From Candidatus Bathyarchaeota archaeon (GTDB taxonomy: Archaea; Thermoproteota; Bathyarchaeia; Bathyarchaeales; Bathycorpusculaceae): 64,000 nt of DNA. Under the pieces are notes generated by a model, which saw nothing but the letters and a program-made list of their open reading frames with translations, did no database searches and was not told the DNA's origin. Below, piece by piece: positions 44,941 to 62,678 of the stretch (positions within the stretch are counted from its first letter, which is position 1; each line of letters begins with the position of its first letter). Both the position numbers and the translations under genes were made by a program. The stretch is taken from contig OY970176.1 in the NCBI GenBank assembly GCA_963707955.1, positions 1,664,001 through 1,728,000 of the forward strand. The letters are read 5' to 3'.

Positions 44941-45770
44941 TCGTTGCCCTTCATGAGGCTCCGAAAGGATTTTTCAAGACAAGCCCGCCGCACGGCAACG
45001 ACGAGCTCTTGAGGCTTGTGCGGAAAACAGCCCTGTTAGGTTTCAGGGCTATCGAAGTCGGCCCGCTTGCCGACTATCCGTCGATTGATAGTGGACTTTT
45101 GAAAGAAGTTCTTGACGAGCTGAACATGAGGAGAAGTGTGCATGTAGGAGGGCTGTTCGACGCTTCGAAGTTCGGTTCGTCCGAAGAAGAGTATGGTAGG
45201 ATGATGCACCAGGTGCGTCGTGGAGTTACGTTGGGCAGTGAGATAGGTGCAACTTTGGTGTCAGTTCACCCGCCGTTTTTTTCGATGGGAGACGAATCGG
45301 CCGAGTTGTGGTTGGAGGCGAGGGCACGTTTCTTGGGACTGCTAAAAGAGCAGGCGGAATTTGCACGTAGCAACAACATCAAGCTGGCTTTGGAATCATT
45401 CTGCTACAGGCCTTTCATCTTTGAAGGCTTGACTGATTTTGTTCGGTCTATTTCGGATTTTCCGTCGGAAGGACTCGGCGTTCTCTTGGACGCTGGGCAC
45501 TTGTACCAAGTTGGAATCAGCCTTTCCGAAGCGGTTCACATGTTTAAGGACAGACTTGTGGACGTTCACGTTCATGATGCTACGTTGGAGAAGGATTACC
45601 GAAAAGCGACTCACCTTCCACTCGGAAAGGGGAACATAGATTTTCGAAGTCTTGTCAAGTGTTTGCGAGAGGTTCATTATGATGGCTGGCTCACGTTGGA
45701 AATTCGGGCAAGTGAAGAGGAGATCGAGGAAAGCAGGAAGTATCTGGAAGGCTTACTCGCCGAGACGTGA
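44937..45770 (+). CDS. sugar phosphate isomerase/epimerase (AP endonuclease 2 TIM barrel)
   Basis: LALE, LDAGH, VHVHD, HLPLGKGNIDF, YDGWLTLE. Confidence 0.88.
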   Translation: MIVALHEAPKGFFKTSPPHGNDELLRLVRKTALLGFRAIEVGPLADYPSIDSGLLKEVLDELNMRRSVHVGGLFDASKFGSSEEEYGRMMHQVRRGVTLGSEIGATLVSVHPPFFSMGDESAELWLEARARFLGLLKEQAEFARSNNIKLALESFCYRPFIFEGLTDFVRSISDFPSEGLGVLLDAGHLYQVGISLSEAVHMFKDRLVDVHVHDATLEKDYRKATHLPLGKGNIDFRSLVKCLREVHYDGWLTLEIRASEEEIEESRKYLEGLLAET

Positions 45771-45820
45771 GCTTGTGGGGCATGGTCTAGTTCTTGTTTC
45801 GCTTTTTGTCAGAGGTTACA

Positions 45821-45876
45821 ACATTTCCTGTTGCGCGTTTTACCTCGTCTAACACACCCTACCCCCCTCCCCTAGG
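45821..45876 (-). repeat. G-rich dispersed repeat, copy 2
   Basis: Reverse complement CCTAGGGGAGGGGGGTAGGGTGTGTTAGACGAGGTAAAACGCGCAACAGGAAATGT resembles 22854-22910. Confidence 0.65.
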
Positions 45877-46084
45877 TTTATTCTCCAGACAGTGCTGTTG
45901 ATGCAGCTCTTGGCGGTCACTGGCGGAGTCTTTTCGCTCGTTGGGACACTTTTCTTAGCATAGAGTTCAGAACGCGCTCTCTCTATCGAATAGCTTGGCC
46001 CTGTTGCAAGAGCCACGCGCGAATCATGCGTAAAGGCTTTTAAGAAGTATGAATTGTGTGAAATATGCGAAAAGTGGAATAGCT

Positions 46085-46315
46085 ATGAGTTCACGTGACG
46101 AAGGTATGTCTATTTATGGAACCGTGAAAGTAGGCGACCAAGGCCAAGTCGTCATTCCGGTTAAGGCTCGAAAAGACTTCAACATAAAGCCAGGAGACCT
46201 GTTGCTCGTGGTGGCGGGCAAGAAGAGGCGCGGAATCACGATGGTCAAGGCAGACGCGATGAGGGAGTTCGCGTCAAGAGTCCTGAAAGGTCTAGAGCAG
46301 ACCGCAGACGAGTAA
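46085..46315 (+). CDS. AbrB/MazE/SpoVT DNA-binding protein
   Basis: YGTVKVGDQGQVVIPVKARKDFNIKPGD. Confidence 0.92.
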   Translation: MSSRDEGMSIYGTVKVGDQGQVVIPVKARKDFNIKPGDLLLVVAGKKRRGITMVKADAMREFASRVLKGLEQTADE

Positions 46316-46323
46316 CGAGCACC

Positions 46324-46809
46324 GTGTCCACGGGGCTGAATGTCATGTTCGAAAGGCGTGAACGGATGCAGAGATGGTTCAACGATGTCGTAGAGAAGTT
46401 TCGCCAGAAGGGAGCGGTGAGTCCTGACAAGGCGATGACGGCTGAGGAGCTCGGTCTTCCGCCGAGGTTCGAAGAGGCGATGAAGAGGCGTCTGGGTCGC
46501 TTAGGCGTCTTCGTGGAAGTGAACGGCAAGTACTATCTTTCAGAAGAAAGGTTGAAGCAAGTGGAAGAACTGCGATCTGCACGGGGCGGGGCATGGAATC
46601 AAGGAAGCAGAATTATGACGTTGAGACTGTTTCGGTTGGTCACTATTGTTCTCTTCGTCACTCTTTTCCTTGTGAACCTCTTCTTTCCGAGTTGGGAGCT
46701 GAGAGTAATATCCGCTGTTCTTTTGGTTGTTTGGCTAGTGATAACCATGCTGCAGATATACTTTCTCTCAAGGGTCCGAAAGAGGTACACTTCTCAACAG
46801 GTTAGCTAG
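46324..46809 (+). CDS. membrane protein (wHTH-like N-terminus, 2 TM)
   Basis: Follows the AbrB gene; two C-terminal hydrophobic helices. Confidence 0.7.
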   Translation: MSTGLNVMFERRERMQRWFNDVVEKFRQKGAVSPDKAMTAEELGLPPRFEEAMKRRLGRLGVFVEVNGKYYLSEERLKQVEELRSARGGAWNQGSRIMTLRLFRLVTIVLFVTLFLVNLFFPSWELRVISAVLLVVWLVITMLQIYFLSRVRKRYTSQQVS

Positions 46810-46999
46810 GCACGGGCGGCTATGCTGTGCTTTGCCCGTCGACGCAAGTCGTGCCATTCAACTGCACTCTGGTCTCTTTATGGAGCATAGAATCCGTCAC
46901 TTGTGACAAAGTATCTGCCAGCTTGAACCTCGCAGAGGGGAGAGAAAGCTCAAGACGACGATTATGCAGCAGTTCTCGAGGTGGGGTTGCAGCAGCTGT

Positions 47000-47717
47000 T
47001 CAACGCTTCCGTGGACTAGGCCATAGATTGGTTGATTTCAGAACTTTTGACAACGGAGCTCCGATGGACATCGCACCTAATGCGATGACAATTCGCTCTA
47101 CAGGATAAAGAACCGTGAGTGTTTGCCAAGTCGGCAACAGATTTGTCGCATTCGGTATCAAGGCTTCAAAGATTAATGACCCGGCAATCTGACCTGCGAG
47201 TGTGGACGTCAGGCATGTGATGAAAAATCCGAGGAGCAGTTTTAGGTTGCTTCCAGATTCTAGAGACCTTGCAGCCGCGGACTGCAGGGGCGAAACCAGA
47301 ACGATGAGGCCTGCTATCTGGAACCACAGTTCTAGGGGGAACAGCCATGCAGGTCCGACAATTGGATAGAACGCAAAAAGCAGTAGCAGAGAAAGGTAGG
47401 CAAGTATGCTGACTATTCTTTTTCCGCTTTTGACCATTCCGGCACAGAATGCTGCAGCAATGCCTGAGGCGAAGTCTCGGGTAGGAGAGGGCGCCAAGAA
47501 AAAACCCGATCGTTCCCCCTAGAAACGCGGATAGAGTTCCTACGTAGGGACCGAGCAGGATTCCGATGATCGGCGCTATGAATGCAGCGGCAGTGATTGC
47601 TTGCCCTGATAGGCCGATTATCGGGGAGATCTTTATGAATCCGAAAACAGCGTACAAAGCCGTGAAAGTCACCGTCAATGCAGTGTCTTTGGTCGTCAGT
47701 TTTCCGTAGTGCGTCAT
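47000..47717 (-). CDS. ECF transporter S-component-like membrane protein; frameshift near 47485
   Basis: ALTVTFTALYAV..SPIIG..APIIGILLGPYVG; C-terminal YPVERI; split ORFs. Confidence 0.75.
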
Positions 47718-47783
47718 TCTTGCAGTCCTTCGATGCTATTGCGTGGAAACTTAATTATTGGGTGTTGTTTATAAAAGAATGAC

Positions 47784-48578
47784 ATGGCTCGGCGCATAAT
47801 CACTCTAACGACTGATTTTGGCTTGAAGGACCCATACGTGGCAGAGATGAAAGCTGTCATTCTGAAAATATGCCTCGAGGCCATGATCGTGGACATATCT
47901 CATCAAGTCGAAAAATTCAACGTAAGGATGGGAGCATACGTCTTAGCGTCAGCATCTCCGTATTTTCCAGAAGGCACCATCAACGTTGCGGTTGTCGACC
48001 CTGGAGTCGGAACCAAGAGGCGTCCGCTGTGTATACAAACGGGACGCGGCTATTTCATTGGGCCAGACAACGGAGTACTTGTTCTGGCAGCGAAAGCCAA
48101 GGGGATAGAGCACGTTTACGAGTTAACGAACTCAAGGTTCATGATGCCAAACGTGTCCAACACGTTTCATGGAAGGGACATCTTCTCGCCAGCAGCAGCC
48201 CACCTAGCAAACGGAAAACTCCCGTCAGACCTTGGACGAGAAACAAGAAAGATAACGGTCCCTGAATTTGCGAAAGTCGTCAGGAGGAAGGCAGGGCTTG
48301 TTGGTGAGGTGATTCATGTGGACGACTTTGGAAACGTAATAACAAACATTGGAGAAAAAGAGCTTGCGCCGATGCGAACTATAAAGACTGTGAAGGTTAA
48401 GGTGAAAAACACTTGGTTTACATTGAGGCTCTGCAGGACCTACGGGGAAGTTGAGGCGCAGGAACCGCTAGCCCTGATTGGAAGTCACAATTTCCTCGAA
48501 CTCTCCATAAACCAAGGCAACGCATCAAAAGTGTTCAAGGTAAAGAATGGAGACAAGGTCATTCTTCATCCATCTTAA
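47784..48578 (+). CDS. SAM hydroxide adenosyltransferase (DUF62 / chlorinase-fluorinase family)
   Basis: ITLTTDFG.KDPYVAEMK, VVDPGVGT.R, GPDNG, TFHGRDIF, DDFGNVITN. Confidence 0.95.
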   Translation: MARRIITLTTDFGLKDPYVAEMKAVILKICLEAMIVDISHQVEKFNVRMGAYVLASASPYFPEGTINVAVVDPGVGTKRRPLCIQTGRGYFIGPDNGVLVLAAKAKGIEHVYELTNSRFMMPNVSNTFHGRDIFSPAAAHLANGKLPSDLGRETRKITVPEFAKVVRRKAGLVGEVIHVDDFGNVITNIGEKELAPMRTIKTVKVKVKNTWFTLRLCRTYGEVEAQEPLALIGSHNFLELSINQGNASKVFKVKNGDKVILHPS

Positions 48579-49015
48579 CCTCGGCCATCAGTCCCTAGAC
48601 GGTCGTTCGATATGTCGGTTTCTTGAATATGAGTGTCCATCACCTATTTCAACCGTGGAAATCCTGCTTTTAGGCTGAGATGAGAATGTGTTCTTGACCA
48701 GAGATGTTCGAGCAAATATACTTCAACGCTACCCAGACCTTGATACTTCTCTTTCTGTCTCTATTGTCTCTCATCGTAATCGCAGGCACGATCTGGGCGA
48801 GGACAAGGCACTGAGGCTTTTCAGAAATCGAGGAAAGGCTCCAAGAAAATAGCGCATGAGAGCGCTTTTTGTTGATCCTCACAAGACGAGGATAACAATT
48901 TGGAAGCCTCCAAGAAAGCATTTACCTCCTTGGATTTTTAAACGGGCGACACCTTGCGAGAGGATGGGCAATCATTCATAATCCATGAGAGTGCAAGGTC
49001 TCTTTATCGAATACC

Positions 49016-49561
49016 TTAGACTTTGTCGCTTTTGCTCAGGTCTTTGAGCCTGTTGATTCCGTCTATTCCTTTTATGAAAGCTGCCACGCTTTTGGGCACG
49101 AGTTTTTCCCAGTTTTCGTCCTTGATCATTCTCTCTCTGATCTCGGTCGAAGAGTATACCTTTCTGTCAAAGAAACGAATGGGCTTCACCTTATATCCAG
49201 CCTCCGTGAAGAGACGACGTGTCAACGGTTCGTTAGAATAGACAACGTCAAAGTGGGGAGTATAGCCCTCTAGGGAAGAGACCCACATCATGTGCAAGTG
49301 CACGTCCGGAACGGGCACGATCCAAACGCGTATATAATCTACTTCGCATTCTTCCAACGCCTCGCGAACCATAACCAGCCTTTCTCCTGCGGTAAACGGG
49401 TTGCTGAGGTTGTGGCTGTACTGCGCGCTGCCGATGACGATTACCAGTTCGTCAACCTCTTTCAGAACTTCCTTTATCGCGCTGAGGTGCCCCAGGTGAA
49501 AAGGTTGAAACCTTCCTACGTAAAGGCCTCGCTTGTCCATCCGGATCATCTTTTTCAACAT
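49016..49561 (-). CDS. nadM: nicotinamide-nucleotide adenylyltransferase
   Basis: GRFQPFHLGH, GSAQYSH..NPFTAGER, SSTEIR. Confidence 0.95.
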   Translation of the reverse strand: MLKKMIRMDKRGLYVGRFQPFHLGHLSAIKEVLKEVDELVIVIGSAQYSHNLSNPFTAGERLVMVREALEECEVDYIRVWIVPVPDVHLHMMWVSSLEGYTPHFDVVYSNEPLTRRLFTEAGYKVKPIRFFDRKVYSSTEIRERMIKDENWEKLVPKSVAAFIKGIDGINRLKDLSKSDKV

Positions 49562-49586
49562 GTTATCTGTCGAAGAGAATTAACAT

Positions 49587-50174
49587 TTATCCCTGCTCAG
49601 CTTTCCTGATCACAAGCTCGACTGGAAACACTCGCAATTTCTTGCCGTCCACTGGAATTTCGCGTTCAGCAGGATAGTCACGCCTTTCGCGCTTCAGAAA
49701 AGCAAGCTTGACGTCCAAGCCGCCTCCGTACCCACCCAGTGTGAAATCCGCTCTTACAACTCGATGGCACGGGCAGACCGGTGCAAAAGGGTTTGAAGCC
49801 ATGATCTGCCCGACAGCTCGGGGTCCTCCTCCGACGGCTTTGGCAACTTCACCGTACGTGGTTACGTAACCCGGCGGTACCTTGCAAACGGTTTCGATTA
49901 CTTTCTTAGTGTACTTTGGCAGATGCTCCTCGGCCAGGGAGAAGCCGTGAGAAACGTCTTTTCCTTCGTAAATCTCCTTCAACGCTTCGATCACAGAGTG
50001 GGCAAACTCGGTTTTCTTTGGGTTTTCCGCAGAAACATGAAAGGGGACACTTTCTCTCAATCCTCGTCGAGCATTGTTCTGAGTTGAGGCAAACGTTGTC
50101 GCGTAGACAGATTCTCCTTCAAGAGCGACTCCAAACCAGACATCTCCCACCTTCTCGGTGTAAAGGCTTACCAT
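49587..50174 (-). CDS. ogt: methylated-DNA--protein-cysteine methyltransferase
   Basis: VTTYG, PRAVG, NP..PCHRVV, LGGYGGG..K..L..E. Confidence 0.92.
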   Translation of the reverse strand: MVSLYTEKVGDVWFGVALEGESVYATTFASTQNNARRGLRESVPFHVSAENPKKTEFAHSVIEALKEIYEGKDVSHGFSLAEEHLPKYTKKVIETVCKVPPGYVTTYGEVAKAVGGGPRAVGQIMASNPFAPVCPCHRVVRADFTLGGYGGGLDVKLAFLKRERRDYPAEREIPVDGKKLRVFPVELVIRKAEQG

Positions 50175-50613
50175 GCTTGCTTCCTCTCGTAGAACTATCG
50201 CCGCATCAAGTTTTATTTCTTGCCCCCTCTTATTCACTCTTGCACACACACGCTCTATTAAGAAAACCTCACACACACTTGCCGAAGCGTCGTCATCCGC
50301 GCGCGGAAGGCAGATCAGGAATAGCATCATTCTCGCGGACAAATTTTTCAGCGGTAAAAAACGACGGGGTAGAGGAACGTTGCGGGCTCGCGTACCTTAC
50401 AATGTTCTGATGCACCGTATTTCTTAGCCCCTAGCGGTAGGCTCGTTTTGGTTGATCACACGAAAAAAGAATTATTTTTTTGTCGTTCAGCGCCGGCTTC
50501 TATGGTCACCGCAAACACGAACCCTACAATGGTCTCAGCAAAAAGGGGCCCCGCAGCTCTCGTGGTAAACGAGAACAGAAAAAACAGGGGATCGTCGGGA
50601 GAAGTCTCCACCT

Positions 50614-50621
50614 CTTTATCA
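50614..50621 (+). repeat. 8-bp target duplication CTTTATCA (copy 1 of 3; others 51696-51703 and 55963-55970)
   Basis: Identical 8-mer directly abutting GGTTCTGT / ACAGAACC termini at all three junctions. Confidence 0.9.
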
Positions 50622-50746
50622 GGTTCTGTTAACTCTTAGGCGCTTTTGAGTTTTACTGAGAGGTTTGTTAACCATCGGCGCTTTTGGCAGAGTACTGTTA
50701 AGTCCTTTGACCTAGTGGGATTTAATCGCTTTACATGACGACTTCT

Positions 50747-50959
50747 CTAGAAAATATAAACGTAAGTTGGGTGGTCGCCTCCACCAGTTCCGCCCTTCAT
50801 GCCTTTATCAAGAAAATATTTCTCCACGTTTCTCGCCATCGTTTCGCTGTCGGCTTTCCAATCCGCCCAATGCTCGGGATTACCGTGCTGCTCCTTGCGT
50901 TGTTTTGGGTCTTCAGTGATACCAATAGTCCAAAGTCTATAGGTTATAACCTTGTTATC
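50747..50959 (-). pseudogene. 5'-truncated small gene (GIY-YIG-like pattern) cut by the IS end at 50961
   Basis: ..YRLWTIGITEDPKQRKEQHGNPEHWADWKADSETMARNVEKYFLDKGMKGGTGGGDHPTYVYIF*; frame runs into the TIR without a start. Confidence 0.7.
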
Positions 50960-51104
50960 AGGTTCTGTTAACTCTTAGGCGCTTAAAGAAGTTTGTTAAC
51001 CGTCGGCGCTTTTCAATATTTATGGGCAAGACAGTTTCTGGAACGTACTGTACTAAAGCTTAGACTTATATTTTTCAGTTGTCACTACTAGATTAGGGAG
51101 TTCA

Positions 51105-51611
51105 ATGGGCGAAACAAAGGAAAGAAAAATCGCTCGAAAAAGCGTCCTCATCACACTTGGAATAATCTGCGTCGTTCTTGTGGCTGGTCTCACCGTGTCG
51201 AAGCTTATCTATGGGACAAACTTCAGTTCTTACTATGATGAGTTTGGGAATGTTTCTGTTGTGAGTCGTAGCTACAATTTTTCTCCGCCAGTATCCATGT
51301 ACAATGCTATAAAAATTGCATTGGAAAGTGACCGATGGAACGCGTCCTCGCTGAGTAACATGACAGTGTGTGCTTCCCTAGAATACTGGGAATTCTGGGG
51401 CAACTCTTCAAGCAGCGGTTCCGAATTGCTTCATTACGTGACGCAACCAGCAAACGACTACTCGCCCGTCCAAGTCAACAACACAACTTATCGATACATA
51501 TGGGACATCGTTGTTGAACCCAGTGTAGGCGCACGATCAATACCTCCTCCAGGGCTTTACTGGGTTGATGCGGCAACTGGAGAAATAGTTCCGCACGGTA
51601 TACTCGCCTAA
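51105..51611 (+). CDS. membrane-anchored secreted protein with PepSY-like C-terminal motif (cargo)
   Basis: N-terminal TM segment, many sequons, YWVDAATGEIV. Confidence 0.8.
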   Translation: MGETKERKIARKSVLITLGIICVVLVAGLTVSKLIYGTNFSSYYDEFGNVSVVSRSYNFSPPVSMYNAIKIALESDRWNASSLSNMTVCASLEYWEFWGNSSSSGSELLHYVTQPANDYSPVQVNNTTYRYIWDIVVEPSVGARSIPPPGLYWVDAATGEIVPHGILA

Positions 51612-51755
51612 AGAACGAAGTTTCACAATCCAAGATGCCTTTGGTTAACATGGACAAAACTTTATCCATAAAAGCGCCTAAGACTTAACAGAACCCTTTA
51701 TCAGGTTCTGTAAACTTATCGGTTGGTATTTTTCCGAGAACCCAAGGGTTTTCTG

Positions 51756-52010
51756 TTATTGAAGATTTTTGAAGGCTTTAAGACATTGGTTCAGTTTACT
51801 GAGATAGTAACCAGCGATGCTTAGCAATATGAGAGCTACGATAAAAATTAAGACTTTTAAAGAGGTCTGGTCAGAAGGAAGCAGATAGCCTAGTACGATA
51901 AGAGCTATGGCACCAGCAAATAAACCAAAACATGACGCAAGACAGAATTGAAGATCAGCATTAAGTTGCGCTATCTTTATCTGTAATTTTCTATCCACAT
52001 CATCCGTCAA
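51756..52010 (-). CDS. small 2-TM membrane protein (cargo)
   Basis: Two hydrophobic helices. Confidence 0.7.
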   Translation of the reverse strand: MTDDVDRKLQIKIAQLNADLQFCLASCFGLFAGAIALIVLGYLLPSDQTSLKVLIFIVALILLSIAGYYLSKLNQCLKAFKNLQ

Positions 52011-52146
52011 ATTCTCATGTCCAATGGACGATGTTCGTTTCTGTTTGCTTAAGCATTTCGCTAGGATGAGCCGATAGATGATTTTTCTTCTGTGATTGAC
52101 CTTCTGAGAATAACCTTATATTGCAATAAGCATAAACGGCTTTCTC

Positions 52147-52757
52147 ATGACAGCGATCCCGCTTTTGACAAGTTGGGCGGATGTGATTCTGATAATTCTT
52201 TTTGGTATTCCGACGGTTATAGGAGTTTACCGTTTTTTCTTATCAAGCCTAAACTCAAAATCGAAGATTGCCACACGGGAACAGATGAGAGTAATCCAGA
52301 CTTACAAGATTGCTCTTTCTATCTTCACAATGCTGGAAAAAGAACAGCTATTGGTGTCAGAATCAAGTTTAAAATAAATCAAAAATTGCCTAAAAGACCG
52401 AAACCGCCGAAGCTTGTACATGAGTTTGGAACTTTAAATCCCAATTTTCCACAGATGCTTACGCCTTTTGATCTTGATCCTGATGAAACAATTTTAGTAA
52501 GAGTATGCGAAGTGACAAAAGACCAACGTGCCATTTTCCAACTTTTTCGAGATGATCAAGTGTTCAGGATGCCAATGCTTTCTCTGGAGAGCGGACGCAA
52601 ATATGAATTGCTTTTCCGATTCGTTGGTAGAAACTTCTCAGATAGAAAAGTGTGGCATCTTTTCCTTGATCTTAAACATGAAAAACCAATGTTTGCTTTA
52701 ATTTCTAGAAACGTATTCTCCCAATATTTGTCTGACCACCTCAGGGACAGAGGCTAG
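52147..52757 (+). CDS. membrane-anchored protein (cargo); frameshift in a T-run near 52235
   Basis: MTAIPLL..TM..VYRFFL joins the frame IKPKLKIE..LHNAGKRTAIGVRI. Confidence 0.6.
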
Positions 52758-52835
52758 TTTTCGTTTTTTTCTTTCCTTTTCTAGGGCATCTACCATTTCT
52801 TGTGTCATCGATACCATTATTTTTTTCATAGGCAT
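52698..52835 (-). CDS. ribbon-helix-helix (CopG-like) protein, 45 aa, divergent from the transposase; not in ORF track
   Basis: MPMKKIMVSMTQEMVDALEKERKKRKLASVPEVVRQILGEYVSRN*. Confidence 0.85.
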   Translation of the reverse strand: MPMKKIMVSMTQEMVDALEKERKKRKLASVPEVVRQILGEYVSRN

Positions 52836-52843
52836 TCTGAATC

Positions 52844-52910
52844 ACTACCGATAGATACCATTAGCAACCTTTATATTTAAGACTTGCTATTATACCATTA
52901 GATACCAATA
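52844..52910. promoter_or_regulatory. divergent promoter with 10-bp direct repeats GATACCAwTA flanking a TATA box (candidate RHH operator)
   Basis: GATACCATTA 52854, TATACCATTA 52891, GATACCAATA 52901, plus GATACCATTA 52810 and degenerate 52844; TTTATATTTAA at 52870. Confidence 0.65.
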
Positions 52911-52921
52911 GGTGTAGCAAC

Positions 52922-54070
52922 ATGATGACTGAAAACGGAAGAATGGTTCGAGGCTTCGCAATAATAGCCCAACACCAACAGATAGAACAAAAAGAAGCCC
53001 ACACATTCAAGGTGAAAAGTCAATCTGGAAACGGTCAATACGTTGTAACCAACGGCAAAGAATGGGATTGCACTTGCCCAGACCACGCATACAGAAAGGT
53101 TGTTTGTAAACACATTTTTGCCGTTCGCTTTTGGATAAGCCTCAAAGACAAAATTGACAATGCAGATGTTTTCCAGCTTTACAGAGAATTTTCAGAGGCT
53201 TCCACATGCAAGTTTTGCGGTTCAATCAACATTATCAAATGGGGTTATCGCAAAAACAGAAACGTGAAAACTCCGAGGTTCAAGTGCAAAGATTGCGGTC
53301 AAAGCTTCGTTGTTGATGAGGGGTTCGCTAGGATGCGGTTCGATCCCAAAATCGTTTCGTTAGCTCTAGACCTTTATTTCAAGGGCATAAGCCTCAGAAA
53401 GATAGTTGATCACATCAAGCAGTTTTATGGCTTGGACATTAGCCAAATGGGAGTTTTCAAGTGGTTGCAGAAGTATGGAAGAATCATTAACGCTTACGTT
53501 GATCAGCTTGAACCAGAATTGTCAAGAGTCTGGAATACGGATGAAATGAAAATCCGCTGTGGTGGAAAATGGCTCTGGTTATGGAACGTCATGGACAATT
53601 CGACCAGATACTTACTTGCGTCTCATGTTTCTGAAGGCAGAGAAGCTTCAGACGCAAGGCAAGTATGGGCAAAAGCAAAGGAAAAGGTTGGACATAACCC
53701 AGAGGTTGTTGTAACAGATGGTTTACGCTCATACGTTGAAGCTTTCAAAAAGGAGTTTTGGACTCTGAAGAATCCGAGAACAAAGCACATGGCAAACGCT
53801 GGAATAAGAGCAAGAGCCAACAACAACGTCATTGAAAGGTTGCATGGCACGATCAGAGAACGAGACAAGGTTATGAGAGGTCTAAAGACAGAACGTACAG
53901 CAAAAACAATGACAGAAACGTACAGAACATATTACAACTGCATAAGACCTCATCAAGCTTTAAATGGGAAAACTCCGGCACAACAAGCCAACATAAAGTT
54001 AGAGCTAGGAAAGAACAAATGGCTTGGATTAATCACGGCAAGCATTCGAAAAACAGAATCACATAGTTAG
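52922..54070 (+). CDS. IS6-family DDE transposase with N-terminal SWIM finger and Zn ribbon
   Basis: CTCPD..CKH (SWIM), CKFC..CKDC, WNTDEM..W.W.W..MD, VVTDG..Y, NNVIER.H; intact ORF. Confidence 0.93.
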   Translation: MMTENGRMVRGFAIIAQHQQIEQKEAHTFKVKSQSGNGQYVVTNGKEWDCTCPDHAYRKVVCKHIFAVRFWISLKDKIDNADVFQLYREFSEASTCKFCGSINIIKWGYRKNRNVKTPRFKCKDCGQSFVVDEGFARMRFDPKIVSLALDLYFKGISLRKIVDHIKQFYGLDISQMGVFKWLQKYGRIINAYVDQLEPELSRVWNTDEMKIRCGGKWLWLWNVMDNSTRYLLASHVSEGREASDARQVWAKAKEKVGHNPEVVVTDGLRSYVEAFKKEFWTLKNPRTKHMANAGIRARANNNVIERLHGTIRERDKVMRGLKTERTAKTMTETYRTYYNCIRPHQALNGKTPAQQANIKLELGKNKWLGLITASIRKTESHS

Positions 54071-54379
54071 CAAAGCAGAGAGCAATACAACCATTTCTAG
54101 GATCATCAAGAACAGACCAATTACGGACCACTTTGCCAGCAAACTTACATAAGATAAAACTTCCTTTTTTCTTCCATAAAGACTCAGGATACACAATGGG
54201 GCTTCTATGACGAAGGTGATCGCCACAATAAAGAAACCAAATTTGAAACCGCCAGAAAGTTTTCCAACATTGCTCCATAAGCCAAAGAGTATCGCAAAAA
54301 CAATGGCAAACATGGTAGAAGATGTATTTAGAGAAATCTCCGCAAGTTTATGCCAATGGGTTAGTTCTTTCTCACTCAT
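54059..54379 (-). CDS. small 3-TM membrane protein (cargo)
   Basis: Three hydrophobic helices. Confidence 0.7.
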   Translation of the reverse strand: MSEKELTHWHKLAEISLNTSSTMFAIVFAILFGLWSNVGKLSGGFKFGFFIVAITFVIEAPLCILSLYGRKKEVLSYVSLLAKWSVIGLFLMILEMVVLLSALLTM

Positions 54380-54389
54380 CTGATACGAC

Positions 54390-54836
54390 CTAGAAGGATA
54401 TGTTGATAGAATATGTGGACTTCAGCACTTGCAGTTTGTACAGTTCTACCTTGATCGTATAAAGTCCATGATCAGGAACATTGCTCTGCCAAACTATGAC
54501 GTACTCGCCAATTGGAACATTTATCCGTGAAAAATTAGCGATGGACTGACTCACTAAAGTTATGCTGATGTTTAGGACATAGGCACCTAATGAATAAGAA
54601 GGTCCAAACAAGGGAGAAATCAAAGACTTGCTAGGGGTGTCAACCCAAACATTTTGTATATCGTCTGAGTAGCCTATCTGAATGTGGATGTCTGTTTCTT
54701 TAAAGATGGGAATGATGAAAAAAATCGTCAAAGTAACCATGATCGCAAGTAGAATAGGTAACCAATTCGACCGAAATACCGACAATTGTCTGCTTCCTTT
54801 CTTATCTTCTAGTTCACCTCCTTCCACTTTTATCAC
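54390..54836 (-). CDS. membrane-anchored beta-rich protein (cargo)
   Basis: Single N-terminal TM segment, Ig-like C-terminus (GLYTIKVELY). Confidence 0.7.
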   Translation of the reverse strand: MIKVEGGELEDKKGSRQLSVFRSNWLPILLAIMVTLTIFFIIPIFKETDIHIQIGYSDDIQNVWVDTPSKSLISPLFGPSYSLGAYVLNISITLVSQSIANFSRINVPIGEYVIVWQSNVPDHGLYTIKVELYKLQVLKSTYSINISF

Positions 54837-54863
54837 TTTCCGTTAGCGAAAAATAGAGGTGTT

Positions 54864-55076
54864 TCAAGATGAGAAGTTTCGGCGGTTCCAACCTTCTTTG
54901 CGAACAACGAATTTTATGTCCTTTCTAGGACTGAAAGCCCTTTGCAGACTTCTTGCCCTTTTCTGGGCTTGTTTCTTAGTGCGGAAGTGTGTTCCAGCAA
55001 CAATTCTGACGGGACTTCTTCCCTGTTTTCTCACAACAAGATAAGGCTTAGACGAACCGCGTCTATGATAACTCAT
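54864..55076 (-). CDS. small basic protein (cargo)
   Basis: MSYHRRGSSKPYLVVRK..HFRTKKQAQKRARSLQ.. Confidence 0.5.
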   Translation of the reverse strand: MSYHRRGSSKPYLVVRKQGRSPVRIVAGTHFRTKKQAQKRARSLQRAFSPRKDIKFVVRKEGWNRRNFSS

Positions 55077-55187
55077 TAAGGGTTCACAGAAGAAAAATCG
55101 CAATTGTGCATAGGACTCGTTTTTTGGAGAGTTGCAACCGTGGAAATCCTATTTAGCACAGAGAGGCTATGTACATAGGGGAAAGAA

Positions 55188-55895
55188 TTGGTCGATGATC
55201 GGAAGAATGTAGCAAACGAGAAGTCAGTAAACAAGTTTCTGCTTGAATTTCATCCTCAGTTTCTAAAAGCCATAAGAGATGTCTATCCGCTAGGAGTTCT
55301 AAGCTCACTGTCAATGACAATAGCTGCATTCATAACCTCATTCGCGAAGGAATCACTTGCCCTCGCACAGACATACGCTATTGCTGCCTCGCTCATGTTT
55401 TTAGCTGCCTTTTCAATCTCTCTGATTTTGAAATTGTTTCTTGCATTGGAGAAAAATGACGAAAGCCCATCTTTAGGGCTATACGCACTTATCTCTTACA
55501 TATGCACTGGTTCAGGGATAGTCTTTCTATTCCTCACGATCACCCAATTTTGGTCTGTGCTTTCCGTAGCTAGAGTCATTATCCCAGTTTTTGCGATTCT
55601 AGTAATTGGAGTGTTTCTATTGCCACTTCCTAATATACTGAATACAGCCAAAACCTTTAACCGAAAAAGTGTCTTGGTCTTGGGTTATGTAAGTGTAGTC
55701 TGCTATTTTCTCATCGTTTTTTGTATTCTCATTGGCATACTGGCATTATATGGCATAGTCTTACCTTTTTCTGCATTGTGGGTTTATTTGCTTGCGGGAA
55801 GCCTATTTCTAGGCTTGTTCTGCGTTCTCGTTATATTAGTCCTAGGCATCATACGGCTATTCAGGAGAAACAGGCAGTCACCAACCGAAAAGTAA
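55188..55895 (+). CDS. multi-pass membrane protein (cargo)
   Basis: About 6 hydrophobic segments. Confidence 0.75.
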   Translation: MVDDRKNVANEKSVNKFLLEFHPQFLKAIRDVYPLGVLSSLSMTIAAFITSFAKESLALAQTYAIAASLMFLAAFSISLILKLFLALEKNDESPSLGLYALISYICTGSGIVFLFLTITQFWSVLSVARVIIPVFAILVIGVFLLPLPNILNTAKTFNRKSVLVLGYVSVVCYFLIVFCILIGILALYGIVLPFSALWVYLLAGSLFLGLFCVLVILVLGIIRLFRRNRQSPTEK

Positions 55896-56018
55896 CATCT
55901 CCATGACAGATAAGTTTACGGTATCGGCTCGGAAATATACCAACCGATAAGTTTACAGAACCCTTTATCATTAAGTTTAATAGTTTGTCCGTGCATAAAA
56001 CGGGAAAGGCGTTGTCGT

Positions 56019-56636
56019 ATGGAAAAGCAAGCGCAGAATGGTTACATGTTCATTCCAGGGGCCACAACTGTCGGCGTAATCTTCAAAGAGGGTGTTATTC
56101 TGGCCTCTGAGAAGCGGGTTTCCTATGGTTATCTGATTGTGAGCAAAACAGGGAAGAAGGTTTTCAAACTCACGGACCACATAGGCGCGGCTTGTGCTGG
56201 ACTGGTTTCAGACATGCAGGTTCTCATCAGAGAAGTCGAAGCCTACGCAAACCTGTTTAACCTGGATGTTGGCCGACCCATATCGGTCAGATCGGCCGCT
56301 AAGTTCATGTCAAGTCTACTCTTCAACCGTCGGTTGGCACCTCTCATCACGCAGACAATCGTCGGGGGAGTGGACAAAGAGGGTCCATCAATCTACTCGC
56401 TGGACCCACTGGGTTCAGTGCTTCCGGACAAGTATACGGTCGTTGGGTCAGGAACAGAGATTGCGATGGGAGTCGTTGAGGAAGGATACAAGGACAACAT
56501 GGAAATGGATGAAGCGAAGGGCCTAGTCATGAGGGCAATGAAATCTGCCGTGAGCAGAGACATAATGAGCGGAGACGGGATAGACTTTCTGATAATAACT
56601 AAGGATGGAATAAGCGAAGAATCCGTGAAATTTTAG
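56019..56636 (+). CDS. psmB: proteasome subunit beta
   Basis: PGATTVG, ASEKR, AGLVSDMQ, GSGTEIAMG, RDIMSGDG. Confidence 0.95.
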   Translation: MEKQAQNGYMFIPGATTVGVIFKEGVILASEKRVSYGYLIVSKTGKKVFKLTDHIGAACAGLVSDMQVLIREVEAYANLFNLDVGRPISVRSAAKFMSSLLFNRRLAPLITQTIVGGVDKEGPSIYSLDPLGSVLPDKYTVVGSGTEIAMGVVEEGYKDNMEMDEAKGLVMRAMKSAVSRDIMSGDGIDFLIITKDGISEESVKF

Positions 56637-56712
56637 ACCTTCCATTCTCAGCAAGATTTAAACTTTGATCTCTGCACACTAGTATTCTCCGTGAAGCAGG
56701 GAGTATTCAAAA

Positions 56713-57357
56713 TTGTCGTTTCAGCTTAGCCAGAATGAAGGCAGTTTTCTCGTGAAGCTGGCACGGAAGGCCGTTGAAGACTATTTGAAAACTGGGAAAC
56801 ACACCAAGATCCCGATGGGCGTCTCAGAAGAACTGCTAAAACCATGCGGGGTCTTCGTTACCATAAACAAGCTTGAGGGTGACCAGAAAGCTCTCAGGGG
56901 ATGCATTGGCTTTCCGTACCCGACGACGTCGCTGGTTGAAGCAGTTGTAGAGTCTGCGATAAGCGCGGCAACTCAGGACCCAAGGTTTCCACCCGTTTCT
57001 CTTGATGAACTTGATCACGTTGTCTTCGAGGTAAGCGTGCTCACACCTCCTGAGACAGTGGAGGTGAAGAATCCGAAGGAATACTGCGCCCAGATCAAGG
57101 TGGGCGAAGACGGTTTGATCGTTGAAAGAGGCGTCTGCAAGGGGCTGCTCCTGCCTCAGGTGCCTGTCAAATGGGAATGGGATGAGGAGACTTTCTTGTG
57201 TCAATGCTGCCTCAAGGCTGGCTTACCTCCAGATTCTTGGCTTGTGAAAGGCACGAAGATTTACAAGTTCAGTTCCATCATTGCCGAAGAGCTTTCACCG
57301 AAAGGCGATGTGGTGATGGTAGATATGCGAAAGAAAACAAGGACCAAGCAGCTCTAA
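56713..57357 (+). CDS. AMMECR1 family protein (TIGR00296)
   Basis: GVFVT, LRGCIG, DPRFPP, EVSVLT, GLLLPQV, C.KAG. Confidence 0.95.
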   Translation: MSFQLSQNEGSFLVKLARKAVEDYLKTGKHTKIPMGVSEELLKPCGVFVTINKLEGDQKALRGCIGFPYPTTSLVEAVVESAISAATQDPRFPPVSLDELDHVVFEVSVLTPPETVEVKNPKEYCAQIKVGEDGLIVERGVCKGLLLPQVPVKWEWDEETFLCQCCLKAGLPPDSWLVKGTKIYKFSSIIAEELSPKGDVVMVDMRKKTRTKQL

Positions 57358-57438
57358 AGCCCTGCGCGCAAAGTGTTTCAATTGCTGTTAACGCAGAAAA
57401 TTGTCGTCATAGAGAAAACGTGAGAGACAAGATGTGGT

Positions 57439-57774
57439 CTACACGTATTTCTTGTCCCTGTCACACCACCATCTCTGGTATTGCTCAATGTACCGTAACG
57501 GCCCGCCGCACGTGGGGCAGGTCTGCGCCGTCCTCTGTGTCTCTTGAACTTGGGCTCGTGCAGGCTTCAACACTATGAAGTCTCCTGCAGCTTGGACTTC
57601 TTCCCACGATATGTCTCGACCTTCACCTTTCTTTCCCTCAACGCGCAAAGACAAGCCCATCTTGCCAACCACGAAAGCTACGTCTTTAACGGTTCCGACA
57701 GAACGACCATCAGAATCTACAACCGCCATGCCGACGAGCATGTCCTTGGTGACGGCCTTTTCCTGTTTGGCCAT
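57439..57774 (-). CDS. PRC-barrel protein with C-terminal Zn ribbon
   Basis: LVGMAVVDSDG..VGTVKDV..ISWEEV..GDFIVL; CPTCGG. Confidence 0.85.
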   Translation of the reverse strand: MAKQEKAVTKDMLVGMAVVDSDGRSVGTVKDVAFVVGKMGLSLRVEGKKGEGRDISWEEVQAAGDFIVLKPARAQVQETQRTAQTCPTCGGPLRYIEQYQRWWCDRDKKYV

Positions 57775-57975
57775 ACTTATCCTCCTTTTCGTTGGTAAGT
57801 GCGTGTGCACAGCTTAATAGTTTTACCTAAACGCTCTGCGAGTCCCAAAAAAGTTAAGAATCGCTCGGCATCATTTGCGCTTAGTGGCGCATCTTTACGT
57901 CTTCGACTTTCAATAAGACTCTCAGGCTGGTCTTTGATAAACAACCATTGAGAGAGGAAATGGAGCGCAAGGCTG

Positions 57976-59170
57976 TTGATGGGAAGTAGCGGTATGAAAG
58001 TCTATTTTGCTCCTAATGGGATCGGTTTGGGACATGTTGGAAGATGCGTGCCTGTTGCGAGGAGGCTCAGGGAAAATGGTGCTGAAGTGGTTTTTTCAAC
58101 TTATCGGGAAGGGATAGGATACGTTGAGCGCGAGAATTTTCCACTGATAAAGGCTCCTCCTATCGGGTTCCAAGTTAAACCAGACGGGAGCGTTGATTTC
58201 ACGCAGACTGCGATCAATCCGGGCCCGTTTTTGGCCACGTTCACTCTTCTAAAACAGCTCAACGCAGAAATCAGAACGATTGAGGGTTTCAAGCCTGATG
58301 TCGTTGTTTCAGACTCGCGTGCCTCACCTTTGCTGGCGGGGAGACTTTTGAGGGTTCCCGGAATCTGCATACTAAACCAGTTCCAGCCTATAGTTCCAAG
58401 GAGAAAGCGTCTTTTACTTTTGTCAAGGTTCGCAGACGCAGTTACGTTGACTCTTGTTGGTAAAATTTGGACAGGCGGAAACACAGTTCTAATCCCGGAT
58501 TTTCCGCAACCATACACGATATCAATCGGCAATCTCACCATCCCAAAACCCTACCGAAAAAATGTAAAGCTTATAGGACCGATACTCCCGACGAAGCCAG
58601 AAGAATTACCGGCTAGAGAGGAAATATGCGAGAAATTGAACCTGCCAACAGACAGGCCAATAATATTTGCCGCAGTGAGCGGCCCAACGGCAGAGAAGGC
58701 TTTTGTAACCGGAGTTCTGAGAAGAATCCTGCTGGAGTTTCCAGAAGATTATGAAATCATATTGTCCCTTGGCTATCCAAGCGCGGACAGCAAGCCTATA
58801 CGCCATGGTAATGTTACGATTTACAAGTGGGTTCCTAACCGTTTTGAATACTTGAAAGCGTGCGACTTGGTCATAGGACGCGCAGGACATGGAACGATAA
58901 CTCAGTGTATGTGCTATGGCAAGCCCATGATACTCGTACCTACACCTGGTCACACCGAGCAGATCAGTAATGCAAAGCAGGCAGAGAGTATCGGCGTTGC
59001 AAAAATTGTCTTACAGAATCGCTTGAGCAGAGAAAAACTCCTGCAGAACGTCAAAGCGACTTTGCAGGGTAAAATGGTTGAGAGAGACTGCAGAGGTTCA
59101 AGAAGAAGTCCTGAAGTATGACGGATTGGAAAACGCTGTTCAGAACGTGATTGAAGCGGCTGGAAAATAG
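57976..59170 (+). CDS. glycosyltransferase family 28-like; probable frameshift near 59085
   Basis: GIGLGHVGR, PDVVVSD, IGRAGHGTI, P..GHTEQ..NA; alternative frame gives ..LQEVQEEVLKYDGLENAV.. Confidence 0.88.
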
Positions 59171-59217
59171 AAGACTGCAACAAGTGTTTTAAGCCTAATA
59201 GTTGAGAACTTAGAAGC

Positions 59218-60072
59218 ATGTTCTTGCCGCGCAAGATTCTGGAAGAGAAGCTTCGAGCATTGCTGGCTGAGGACATAGGACAAGGAGACATAACTAGTTC
59301 TTTGATAGTTCCGGCAGACACGAATGCGAGGGCTTCAGTGGTGGCAAAACAGCTGGGGATCGTTGCTGGAATTGAAGAAGCAAAGATCTTTCTGCAGAGT
59401 TTAGGACTCGAAGTCAAAGCTTCAGTGAATGACGGGAAAGAAGTGAGACCAGGTGAAGTTCTGCTCAGAATCTCCGGAGATGCTCGCACGCTTCTGGCGG
59501 CAGAACGGACCCTGCTTAATCTTCTTTCGCGCATGAGTGGCATAGCGACAACGACGAGGAACGTGGTCGAGAAGCTTCGAAAGGCCAAGGTTAAGACTAG
59601 GGTTGCGTGTACCAGAAAGACTGCGCCTGGGCTCCTGTACTTCGACAAGAAAGCCGTTCTGATAGGCGGCGGGGACACGCATAGGCTGCATCTTGATGAT
59701 ATGATCCTGATAAAAGATAATCACATCGCCCTAGCAGGAAGCGTTGAAAAGGCCGTTGAAAAAGCTAGGAAACACGCTTCTTTCAGCAAGAAGATTGAGG
59801 TTGAAGTAACCAAGGCTGAGGAAGTTCTGGCTGCTGTTCGAGCTGGAGCTGACATCGTGATGCTGGACAACTTTTCTCCGAAACAGATACAGCAGGCAAT
59901 GACTTTGCTCAAAAGAGAGAAGTATTGTGGAAAAGTTTTGTTAGAAGCCAGTGGCGGAATAACGACGGAGAACATCACGAGATTTGCCTCAACAGGGGTC
60001 GACATCGTGAGTCTGGGCGAAATAACTCAGAGCCCAAAAGCCCTAGACATGAGTCTGGAAATCAACAAATAG
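59218..60072 (+). CDS. nadC: nicotinate-nucleotide pyrophosphorylase (carboxylating)
   Basis: EDIGQGDITS, AERTLLN..MSGIAT, TRKTAPG, HRLHL.D.ILIKDNH, MLDN, EASGGI. Confidence 0.96.
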   Translation: MFLPRKILEEKLRALLAEDIGQGDITSSLIVPADTNARASVVAKQLGIVAGIEEAKIFLQSLGLEVKASVNDGKEVRPGEVLLRISGDARTLLAAERTLLNLLSRMSGIATTTRNVVEKLRKAKVKTRVACTRKTAPGLLYFDKKAVLIGGGDTHRLHLDDMILIKDNHIALAGSVEKAVEKARKHASFSKKIEVEVTKAEEVLAAVRAGADIVMLDNFSPKQIQQAMTLLKREKYCGKVLLEASGGITTENITRFASTGVDIVSLGEITQSPKALDMSLEINK

Positions 60073-62399: not shown

Positions 62400-62678
62400 C
62401 AATTCCAAATCTTCATGTTTAATATGCGCAGCTTTTAAATAAAAACTCACCGATATGCCCAGACGATTCCTGACATGGGAGTTAAGCGTTGCGAAGCGTT
62501 ATGTTGCCGTCTGGGTTCTTCTTTCATATGATCAGAGCACCATTGTTGACGTCATCCACGTGTTTAGGCATTTATGCCTGCGGTTCCGATAACTCTTCGG
62601 GCTATTGACGCGCGGTTGCGAATTCTTATATTCCAGACATGCCAAGGGAATACTATGTAGCAGAGGGCAGCGATTCGG

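Follow-up and report, generated by a model that had tools for sequence, protein, structure and literature searches.

The locus analysed here is the interval between an Ogt-like gene and psmB, the gene for the proteasome beta subunit, in the genome of a Candidatus Bathyarchaeota archaeon (assembly GCA_963707955.1; hereafter G000), which consists of a single contig of 2.35 Mb. The window, that is, the whole stretch of 64,000 nucleotides that was analysed, covers positions 1,664,001-1,728,000 of this contig (OY970176.1), and coordinates are those of the window unless G000 is named. In the ogt-psmB interval, transposons of the IS6 type are stacked directly before the psmB promoter with the same 8-mer repeated from junction to junction, in the order CTTTATCA / 50622-51695 / CTTTATCA / 51704-55962 / CTTTATCA / TTAAGTTTAATAG. 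This stack had been described in an earlier note made from the sequence alone, and the core observation is confirmed. The features of the interval are as follows.

49587-50342, minus strand: Ogt-like gene, the left neighbour, divergent from psmB (Pfam DNA_binding_1, 6-O-methylguanine methyltransferase, E 2.6e-27)
50614-50621, no strand: 8-bp target duplication CTTTATCA, copy 1, distal from the promoter (sequence and repeat finder)
50622-50960, plus strand: A1, a right-truncated stub of an A-type element, with its left inverted repeat at 50622-50647 and without a right end
50961-51695, plus strand: A2, a 735-bp non-autonomous element with one passenger open reading frame (ORF) and no transposase; arms 50961-50984 and 51672-51695, 96% complementary
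51105-51611, plus strand: passenger ORF of A2, 168 aa, with an N-terminal hydrophobic stretch; weak DUF5592 match only (E 0.004), no PADLOC hit
51696-51703, no strand: CTTTATCA, copy 2, at the A2/B junction (sequence and repeat finder)
51704-55962, plus strand: B, an autonomous cargo-carrying element of 4259 bp with 35-nt inverted repeats (51704-51738 and 55928-55962, 97% complementary)
51756-52010, minus strand: a further ORF of B, near its left end
52092-52757, plus strand: ORF of 221 aa, part of the conserved core of B (this ORF, the ribbon-helix-helix gene and the transposase gene); no Pfam or PADLOC match
52698-52835, minus strand: ribbon-helix-helix (CopG) gene, divergent from the transposase gene, a candidate regulator (Pfam RHH_1, E 8.7e-06)
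52922-54070, plus strand: transposase of 382 aa, with a SWIM-like CxCx9CxH motif, a four-cysteine Zn ribbon and a DDE_Tnp_IS240 core
54059-55895, both strands: variable cargo of B, mostly hydrophobic, without family match (54059-54379, 54390-54836 and 54864-55103 on the minus strand, 55188-55895 on the plus strand)
55963-55970, no strand: CTTTATCA, copy 3, beside the promoter, the regenerated target (sequence and repeat finder)
55971-55983, plus strand: psmB core promoter, with TTAAG (55971-55975) at the position of the B recognition element (BRE) and the TATA box TTTAATAG (55976-55983)
56019-56636, plus strand: psmB, proteasome beta subunit (Pfam Proteasome, E 5.8e-55)

Structure of the psmB stack

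The ends of A and B have GGTTCTGT(T/A)AAC in common and diverge after these 12 nt. The shared outer motif GGTTCTGTWAAC, with at most one mismatch, occurs five times in the window as against 0.43 expected, a count that none of 100 shuffles reached, and the G+C content of the elements (40-45%) is below that of their flanks (49%). The TATA box TTTAATAG starts 43 nt before the ATG of psmB; this core promoter is conserved in six congeners, and its offset matches the clade-wide motif described below. All four junctions are bridged by contigs that come from three additional samples of the study: flank/A1 by X2 record 4 and X4 record 21, A1/A2 by X2 record 4, A2/B by X2 record 6, and B/psmB by X2 record 10, X3 record 18 and X4 record 26. 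Rfam and tRNA scans of the region found nothing, and no tRNA gene lies in 45000-60000.

The span 50622-51695 had been taken for a single element A with 26-nt inverted repeats. These repeats are present (96% complementary), but a second A-type left end, 94% like that at 50622 and with ACCTTGTTATCA just before it, lies at 50961, so that 'A' resolves into a right-truncated stub, A1, and the complete 735-bp A2. The first 64 nt of A1 are 84-86% like ends in two other loci (L085 and L088). The sequence ACCTTGTTATCA at the A1/A2 junction (50949-50960) matches the native flank ACCTCTTTATCA in 10 of 12 bases, four of them outside the duplication; an extra copy of CTTTATCA inside the stub, at 50803-50810, is unexplained. 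An origin of A1 by duplication of the left flank was rejected, there being no similarity beyond the 8-mer. A2 fits a non-autonomous cassette (like a mobile insertion cassette, MIC, or a miniature inverted-repeat transposable element, MITE), with inverted repeats and a duplication, and with the transposase absent; its left flank is TGTTATCA and its right flank CTTTATCA.

Contigs from the same sediment samples, with loose ends at 50959-50963 of the window, carry A-type left ends in other contexts, and when these are read outward an AAAnnTTTWA-like sequence follows after 8 nt in four of five flanks. Further solo or unpaired IS6-type ends were seen at 62582 of the window (G000 1726582, plus strand) and at G000 2246817-2247852, 49221-49979 and 813234-816379. 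The unpaired ends of G000 include three tandem right ends about 0.5 kb apart as well as pairs without matching duplications, and they may be relics of rearrangements.

Element B has a G+C content of 40.2%, compared with 47.9% for the window, and encloses passenger genes together with the transposase in one inverted-repeat pair, which is what distinguishes a transporter insertion sequence (tIS). Its transposase matches DDE_Tnp_IS240 (PF13610) with 69.1 bits (E 5.8e-19; cut-off 27), whereas the SWIM-like CxCx9CxH motif (C50, C52, C62 and H64) scores 19.5 bits against a Pfam SWIM cut-off of 19.6. These residues, the four cysteines of the Zn ribbon (C96, C99, C122 and C125) and the catalytic triad (D207, D266 and E305) are invariant across 31 aligned relatives. 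Besides the transposase gene, B contains about seven ORFs, of which about six have no family match. The cargo in the window consists of small hydrophobic proteins, and comparison with PADLOC and Pfam gave no match except for the ribbon-helix-helix protein and two weak DUF matches.

Homologues of psmB were found in 30 relatives, and the upstream DNA was taken for 11 of them. In the three closest congeners (G001, G007 and G010; psmB 93-95% identical), an IS6-type right end lies at the identical position, and the junctions read CAGAACC / CTTTATCA / TTAAGTTTAATAG, with GTTTATCA as the 8-mer in G010. In G001 the site is occupied by a stub of 292 bp that belongs to a fourth type (D), followed by an A-type element of 6570 bp, which encodes a transposase 50% identical to that of B as well as a type IIG restriction-modification enzyme. 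G007 harbors a stack of a truncated transposase fragment (X), a B-type element and a C-type element (7161 bp, transposase 41% identical), and G010 a C-type end. All members of the G001 and G007 stacks are separated by CTTTATCA, and restriction-modification-type enzymes and a PIN protein are carried in these two stacks. The use of one nucleotide position by distinct elements, as claimed for A and B, is thus found both within the window and among the congeners.

The B element of G007 is inverted relative to that of the window, and the two have in common only the core of the 221-aa ORF, the ribbon-helix-helix gene and the transposase gene (86.7% nucleotide identity over 1948 nt); outside this core, no homology was found between their cargoes except for one 56-nt match. 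They therefore represent separate insertions. The flanks at psmB, at 93-95% identity, exceed the 86.7% of the core. The distal member of the stack is a truncated stub in three genomes (A1 in G000, D in G001 and X in G007), which fits the idea that new arrivals enter beside the promoter. An empty site of the predicted form exists in the more distant G005, where it reads GTCTCCGTCT CTTTGACA TTAAG, and a similar one in G002, the general form in both being GGGAGAAGTCTCC(G/A)TCT, 8 nt and TTAAGTTTAATAG. Because the psmB TATA box (55976-55983) is present in these empty sites, it is host DNA.

Target sites in archaea and bacteria

The transposase family comprises at least 1886 proteins at E <= 0.001. 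The confirmed loci number 520 when one genome is taken per species, plus at least 588 in metagenomes, and the best 80 of each were analysed; the hosts are Bathyarchaeia, Thermoplasmatota, methanogens, Nitrososphaeria and DPANN-type lineages. Inverted repeats (at least 14 of 20 matching) with an exact flanking duplication were searched for without seeds in 188 sources (4.08 Mb), which yielded 85 IS6-like pairs with duplications of 8 bp and 1, 1, 4 and 0 pairs with duplications of 6, 7, 9 and 10 bp. Together with the DDE_Tnp_IS240 match and the cargo of B, these pairs bear out the description of the elements as IS6-type transposons with 8-bp duplications and passenger genes. After one pair was dropped and the stacks and the orthologous psmB site were merged, 78 independent sites, drawn from metagenome bins, remained.

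The duplications all differ among the 78 sites, with no more than 0.5 bit at any of the eight positions and a lack of T at -1 as the sole bias. On one flank beyond the duplication, however, the sequence A-A-A-n-n-T-T-T-A-T-A stands at a fixed offset. TTWAW starts at offsets 5, 6 and 7 in 28, 12 and 9 of 142 native flanks, respectively (49/142 altogether), and at other offsets in 0-5; the background being 0.0067 per position, the count at offset 5 has P = 2.5e-32. Counted by site, 43 of the 78 have TTWAW as against 4% expected (P = 2.5e-39), and a seven-position TATA pattern is perfect on 42 of the 78 best sides but on none of 65 opposite sides. In columns that were not used for orienting the sites, A is found at +2 in 56/77 and at +3 in 61/77 (P = 1e-14 and 6e-19), and within the duplication C is favoured at -2 and G or A at -1. 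A BRE followed by a TATA box is the archaeal core-promoter consensus, and the AAAnnTTTATA flank, with C and G/A at -2 and -1, is such a BRE and TATA box.

The targeted flanks also behave as promoters: an ORF starts 20-80 nt past the duplication on 32 of 60 promoter sides compared with 12 of 62 opposite sides, and many of these starts lie at 28-38 nt, which is the geometry of leaderless messages. The genes downstream encode, among others, thermosome subunits (L091, L113, L213 and the L136 stack), MIP, radical SAM, LigB and M29 proteins. The targeting rule is statistically firm. The selectivity proposed in the earlier note is accordingly real, but its object, judged by 78 sites whose duplications all differ, is the BRE/TATA sequence beyond the duplication and not CTTTATCA or the psmB locus.

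Several further observations concern the same sites. Thermosome promoters were hit repeatedly, by independent insertions and by stacks, in L091, L112, L113, L117 and L213 (Thermoplasmatales-type) and in L136 (Methanoregulaceae); the promoter sequence TTTATATAGAAGTGTTTGTAT is nearly identical across these sites, the 8-mers and elements differ, and the thermosome constitutes a second recurrent hot spot besides psmB. No bias was shown in the orientation of the transposase relative to the promoter (27 vs 17, P = 0.17). The notion that the target (BRE/TATA) mimics the end of the element itself, in particular its inner part, was rejected, since a profile of 172 ends, compared with the target at shifts of -12 to +12, gave no peak at 0 (0.27; elsewhere up to 0.56). 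In L145, L148, L149, L155, L156, L162, L170, L181, L184, L216 and L223, the element lies 106-128 nt from one contig end and at a similar distance from the other; such contigs resemble the insertion-allele bubbles of assembly graphs and hint at insertion polymorphism in populations.

Archaeal relatives without SWIM, in which the Zn ribbon comes first, form a small sample: five elements have ends that enclose the transposase, and a TATA-like flank stands at the same offset in four of them. Bacterial relatives were taken from the genomes of the order that holds L300 (Dehalococcoidales), in which 70 of 251 genomes had a match; these are ISDsp3-like (loci L312-L346 and L293-L300), and their proteins have the Zn ribbon only. 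Among 24 bacterial elements, TTG stands exactly 7 nt past the duplication in 19 of 48 flanks, with 0-3 at other offsets (P = 1.2e-20). A -35-like TTG(ACA) at offset 7 is found in 18 of the 24 sites, 10 of which also have TAnnnT 16-18 nt after the hexamer and thereby a full sigma-70-type promoter.

As read from these flanks, promoter targeting spans two domains of life and two promoter grammars. SWIM, which together with the Zn ribbon had been put forward as a candidate targeting module, is not required for the targeting, which is also seen in Zn-ribbon-only relatives (4/5 in archaea, 18/24 in bacteria), and is therefore unlikely to be the reader. The span of two domains and two grammars also makes a conserved contact with TBP or TFB as such unlikely. 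Our preference is for lineage-specific DNA reading by the shared Zn-ribbon/helix-turn-helix part or for the sensing of deformed DNA at the upstream boundary of the initiation complex. An uncontrolled complex prediction with the transposase, the TFB core and the TBP of the host genome scored 0.00 against a mark of 0.32 and speaks neither for nor against such a contact. The SWIM-less transposase copies of the host genome (L002 and L003) have no flanking inverted repeats at 16 or more of 24 matches. One of the three TFB paralogues of this genome lies at 86-1087 of the window, and its TBP genes number four.

Formation of the stacks and competing explanations

At 15 of the 78 sites, at least two elements or ends are stacked and all junctions have one and the same 8-mer, so that homologous elements do stack elsewhere, as had been expected. 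The 8-mers are identical within, and specific to, each site (TTATATCA in L133, ATTTTAGC in L136, TGGTATTT in L113, CGGTTCAG in L077, CCCCACCA in L067 and CTCAAGAA in L142). Among pairs of the form AGAACC-Nk-GGTTCT, k is 8 in 8 of 13. Most stacks with a visible outer flank have a BRE/TATA sequence at one end, the exceptions being L120, without a TATA-like flank, and L135 and L142, in which it is weak.

The psmB stack is probably the footprint of a promoter-seeking transposon family: because such a family inserts at the upstream edge of core promoters, the same spot would be hit repeatedly and a head-to-tail pile would result. The sites show that the Zn-ribbon IS6-like transposase sets its 8-bp staggered cut directly upstream of the archaeal core promoter. 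The BRE (C-R / A-A-A) is made up of the two final bases of the duplication and the three that follow, and the TATA box starts 5-6 nt past the duplication, which thus lies at about -44 to -37 relative to the start of transcription. The promoter-proximal 8-bp copy leaves BRE and TATA intact, so that the gene keeps its core promoter and the target is recreated at each insertion. According to the model, the next element, related or not, would then enter the same 8 bp and push older ones off the promoter. In the window, the stub A1 would be the oldest arrival, followed by A2 and then by B, which is intact and stands beside psmB. Movement presumably takes the copy-in route of the family (cointegrate formation), with 8-bp duplication. 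The comparison with integron-like gene arrays made in the earlier note is apt only as regards appearance: neither a recombinase nor a site of the attC type was found, and repeated ordinary insertions account for the stack. An integron was rejected, as no integrase domain was found among the 10 ORFs scanned and the junctions consist of transposon ends and the duplication.

A number of points weigh against this reading. Stacks, at 15 of 78 sites, are far more frequent than equal use of some two thousand promoters would give. The motif does not cover all sites: 35 of the 78 fail strict TTWAW (many with the variants CTTATAA or CTTATTA), about 14 score 5 or less on the seven-position pattern, and some of the weak-motif sites adjoin G/C-rich palindromes, not a promoter-like flank. 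A few of the 78 sites may be orthologous, as in L112 and L213, whose duplications lie one base apart. At the A1/A2 junction the 8-mer is TGTTATCA, which differs from CTTTATCA at two of eight positions and is unexplained, while the proposed order of arrival is read from the state of decay alone. Finally, no transposition event was observed: empty alleles, partial alleles, circles and joints were absent from the contigs of those four sequencing runs, out of five listed, that contain at least half of the stretch (one of them is probably the source, and no RNA data set was listed), and since contigs drop rare variants they are silent on mobility. The excess of stacks likely reflects hot promoters (psmB and the thermosome) and the neutrality of a second hit at a site that is already split, possibly together with attraction by resident ends.

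Palindromic G/C-rich repeats like CCCCCCTAGGGGGG adjoin IS6-type elements without a promoter flank in L127, L138, L089, L103 and L216. In G000, outside the window (234911-245645 and 969908-982394), such palindromes form inverted pairs with the duplication TACTAGTA, and they may belong to another mobile repeat family.

Attraction by resident ends has also been considered as the main cause of the stacks. The incoming transposase would capture the terminus of a resident related element, the outer GGTTCTG being common to them, and strand transfer would take place at the boundary and 8 bp outside it; elements would thus attract elements, in a replicative process akin to IS26 targeted conservative integration or to the inverted-repeat targeting of IS911 and IS30. 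Stacked neighbours always have the outer 7-12 nt in common, stacks are over-represented (15/78 sites), and for IS26 an accepted model, given in the accessible text of PMC7986276, has the strand transferred next to the end of a target IS. However, of the 64 sites with the motif, 55 lie at the BRE/TATA edge with no end beside them. Because solitary elements already occupy this edge, promoter targeting suffices for the stacks, and end targeting, although it may add to them, is unneeded. The conservative route of IS26, as presented in the same text, involves no duplication and identical ends, whereas here the same 8-mer is found at each junction and the ends differ beyond 12 nt. Moreover, the decayed members are distal in three psmB stacks, a polarity that is unexpected if any junction were usable. 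On this evidence we regard end targeting as an improbable main cause.

Very unlikely is a lack of any targeting, in which random insertions would have survived only in harmless DNA upstream of promoters and the stack would stem from in-place duplication or rearrangement of one old insertion. Selection certainly purges insertions within genes, and the occupation of all three closest congeners is consistent with one ancestral first hit. Selection cannot, however, yield a peak 1-3 nt wide (offsets 5-7) across phyla, nor the bacterial peak at offset 7. In addition, the repeats of A, B, C and D differ, and identity among the A-, B- and C-type transposases reaches 41-50%, compared with 93-95% for the flanks; divergence in place therefore does not account for these elements. 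The view of the earlier note, that the SWIM/Zn-ribbon region recognises the 8-mer CTTTATCA or this safe intergenic site, agrees with the three identical 8-mers of the window and the same 8-mer in G001 and G007, but is scarcely credible given that the 78 sites show no duplication consensus, that an A-type element elsewhere in the host genome has GTCTACCA and another element CATGCCCA, and that SWIM-less relatives show the same promoter offset.

Relation to known elements and significance

The 86 minimal elements range from 578 to 8114 bp (median 4203 bp). Among the passengers, type IIG restriction-modification enzymes like Eco57I/MmeI (18 proteins in 16 loci) and fusions of ParB_N with a methylase (12 loci) recur; others are PIN, SocA/Panacea and DUF1828 proteins. 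The 172 ends begin with G (0.95) and G (0.94) and have G at position 7 (0.97), with the consensus GGTTCTGTTAA.

In the sense of ISfinder, these elements resemble the IS6 family in their DDE type, their GG-starting repeats with G at position 7 and their 8-bp duplication; they differ in size (0.6-8.1 kb, compared with about 0.8 kb) and in carrying cargo in addition to the transposase. Classical IS6 members (IS26, IS257 and IS240) are 0.7-0.9 kb long and, ISDsp3 excepted, have no passengers (Varani et al. 2021, PMC7986276, accessible text). The present elements are further set apart from them by Zn-ribbon N-termini, with or without SWIM, and by a fixed position relative to promoters, no target preference being described in that text.

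A stricter IS6/IS26 family comprises transposases of about 213-254 aa that are close to Tnp26, with a 14-bp repeat consensus (Harmer & Hall 2019, PMC6807381, accessible text, as for the statements on this review that follow). By length and architecture the transposase of B, with 382 aa and SWIM-like and Zn-ribbon extensions, falls outside it. Archaeal and long Zn-finger 'IS6' elements have been proposed for removal from this family, and no experimental data on them are given (PMC6807381). The long Zn-finger Clostridia 'IS6' (clades h/i or VII/VIII), ISDsp3 and the archaeal 'IS6' treated there are alike in their N-terminal Zn-finger extension and in their distance from IS26, and ISDsp3-like elements were recovered here as relatives; SWIM, cargo, stacking and target choice are undescribed for the long Zn-finger groups in that review.

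The arrays also recall IS26 targeted conservative integration and IS911 and IS30, which insert beside element ends, the latter two targeting repeat-like sequences (PMC7986276, accessible text). The psmB stack is nevertheless not an IS26-type conservative array: A and B diverge after 12 nt, the junctions have an identical 8-bp duplication, and the same position is used without a resident end. The aloposons of Heimdallarchaeia, taken in the earlier note for tandem elements with SWIM-bearing IS6 transposases, are in fact giant-protein elements that integrate at tRNA genes and have a ParA-type ATPase module as well as tandem genes for proteins of 3,000-6,000 aa (PMC8813620, accessible text). They are alike in being cargo-carrying integrated archaeal elements, and a link was rejected, since none of the defining features is seen here, the largest ORF being 382 aa and the region 45000-60000 having no tRNA gene (PMC8813620 and PMC11529989, accessible text).

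In the accessible text of the two IS6 reviews (PMC7986276 and PMC6807381), the elements are small and, apart from ISDsp3, cargo-free, and promoter targeting is not mentioned. A literature search found neither promoter targeting nor same-site stacking of IS6-like elements; its scope left out supplements, which might list target sites, and most subscription journals, and the result is thus no proof of novelty.

Among other mobile elements, Ty3 is directed to Pol III starts by TFIIIB, Tf1 enters Pol II promoters and Tn7 uses attTn7. These resemble the present family in that the transcription machinery or a conserved site fixes the place of insertion, the gene is left intact and repeated hits yield tandem arrays. 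They differ in their enzymes, and the eukaryotic retroelements belong to another domain of life; a tether in the present family is hypothetical. We suggest, tentatively, that a Zn-ribbon IS6-like branch of archaea and bacteria might read 'promoter' itself, perhaps via the initiation complex or the DNA shape that it imposes rather than via plain sequence. In prokaryotes, such a branch would correspond to Ty3-type tethered integration, and it would be a natural means of placing stacks of cargo, restriction-modification genes included, next to strong housekeeping promoters.

In short, a large and mostly uncultured IS6-like branch routinely carries cargo, often for restriction-modification, and chooses its target with single-nucleotide precision relative to the core promoter in two domains. 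This would explain how islands pile up beside psmB and thermosome genes without killing them, and it raises the mechanistic question of whether the promoter is read as sequence, as shape or via bound initiation factors. It would also provide a simple rule for locating promoters and insertion hot spots in uncultured archaea, and, for archaea, which have few genetic tools, a candidate enzyme for inserting DNA close to promoters.

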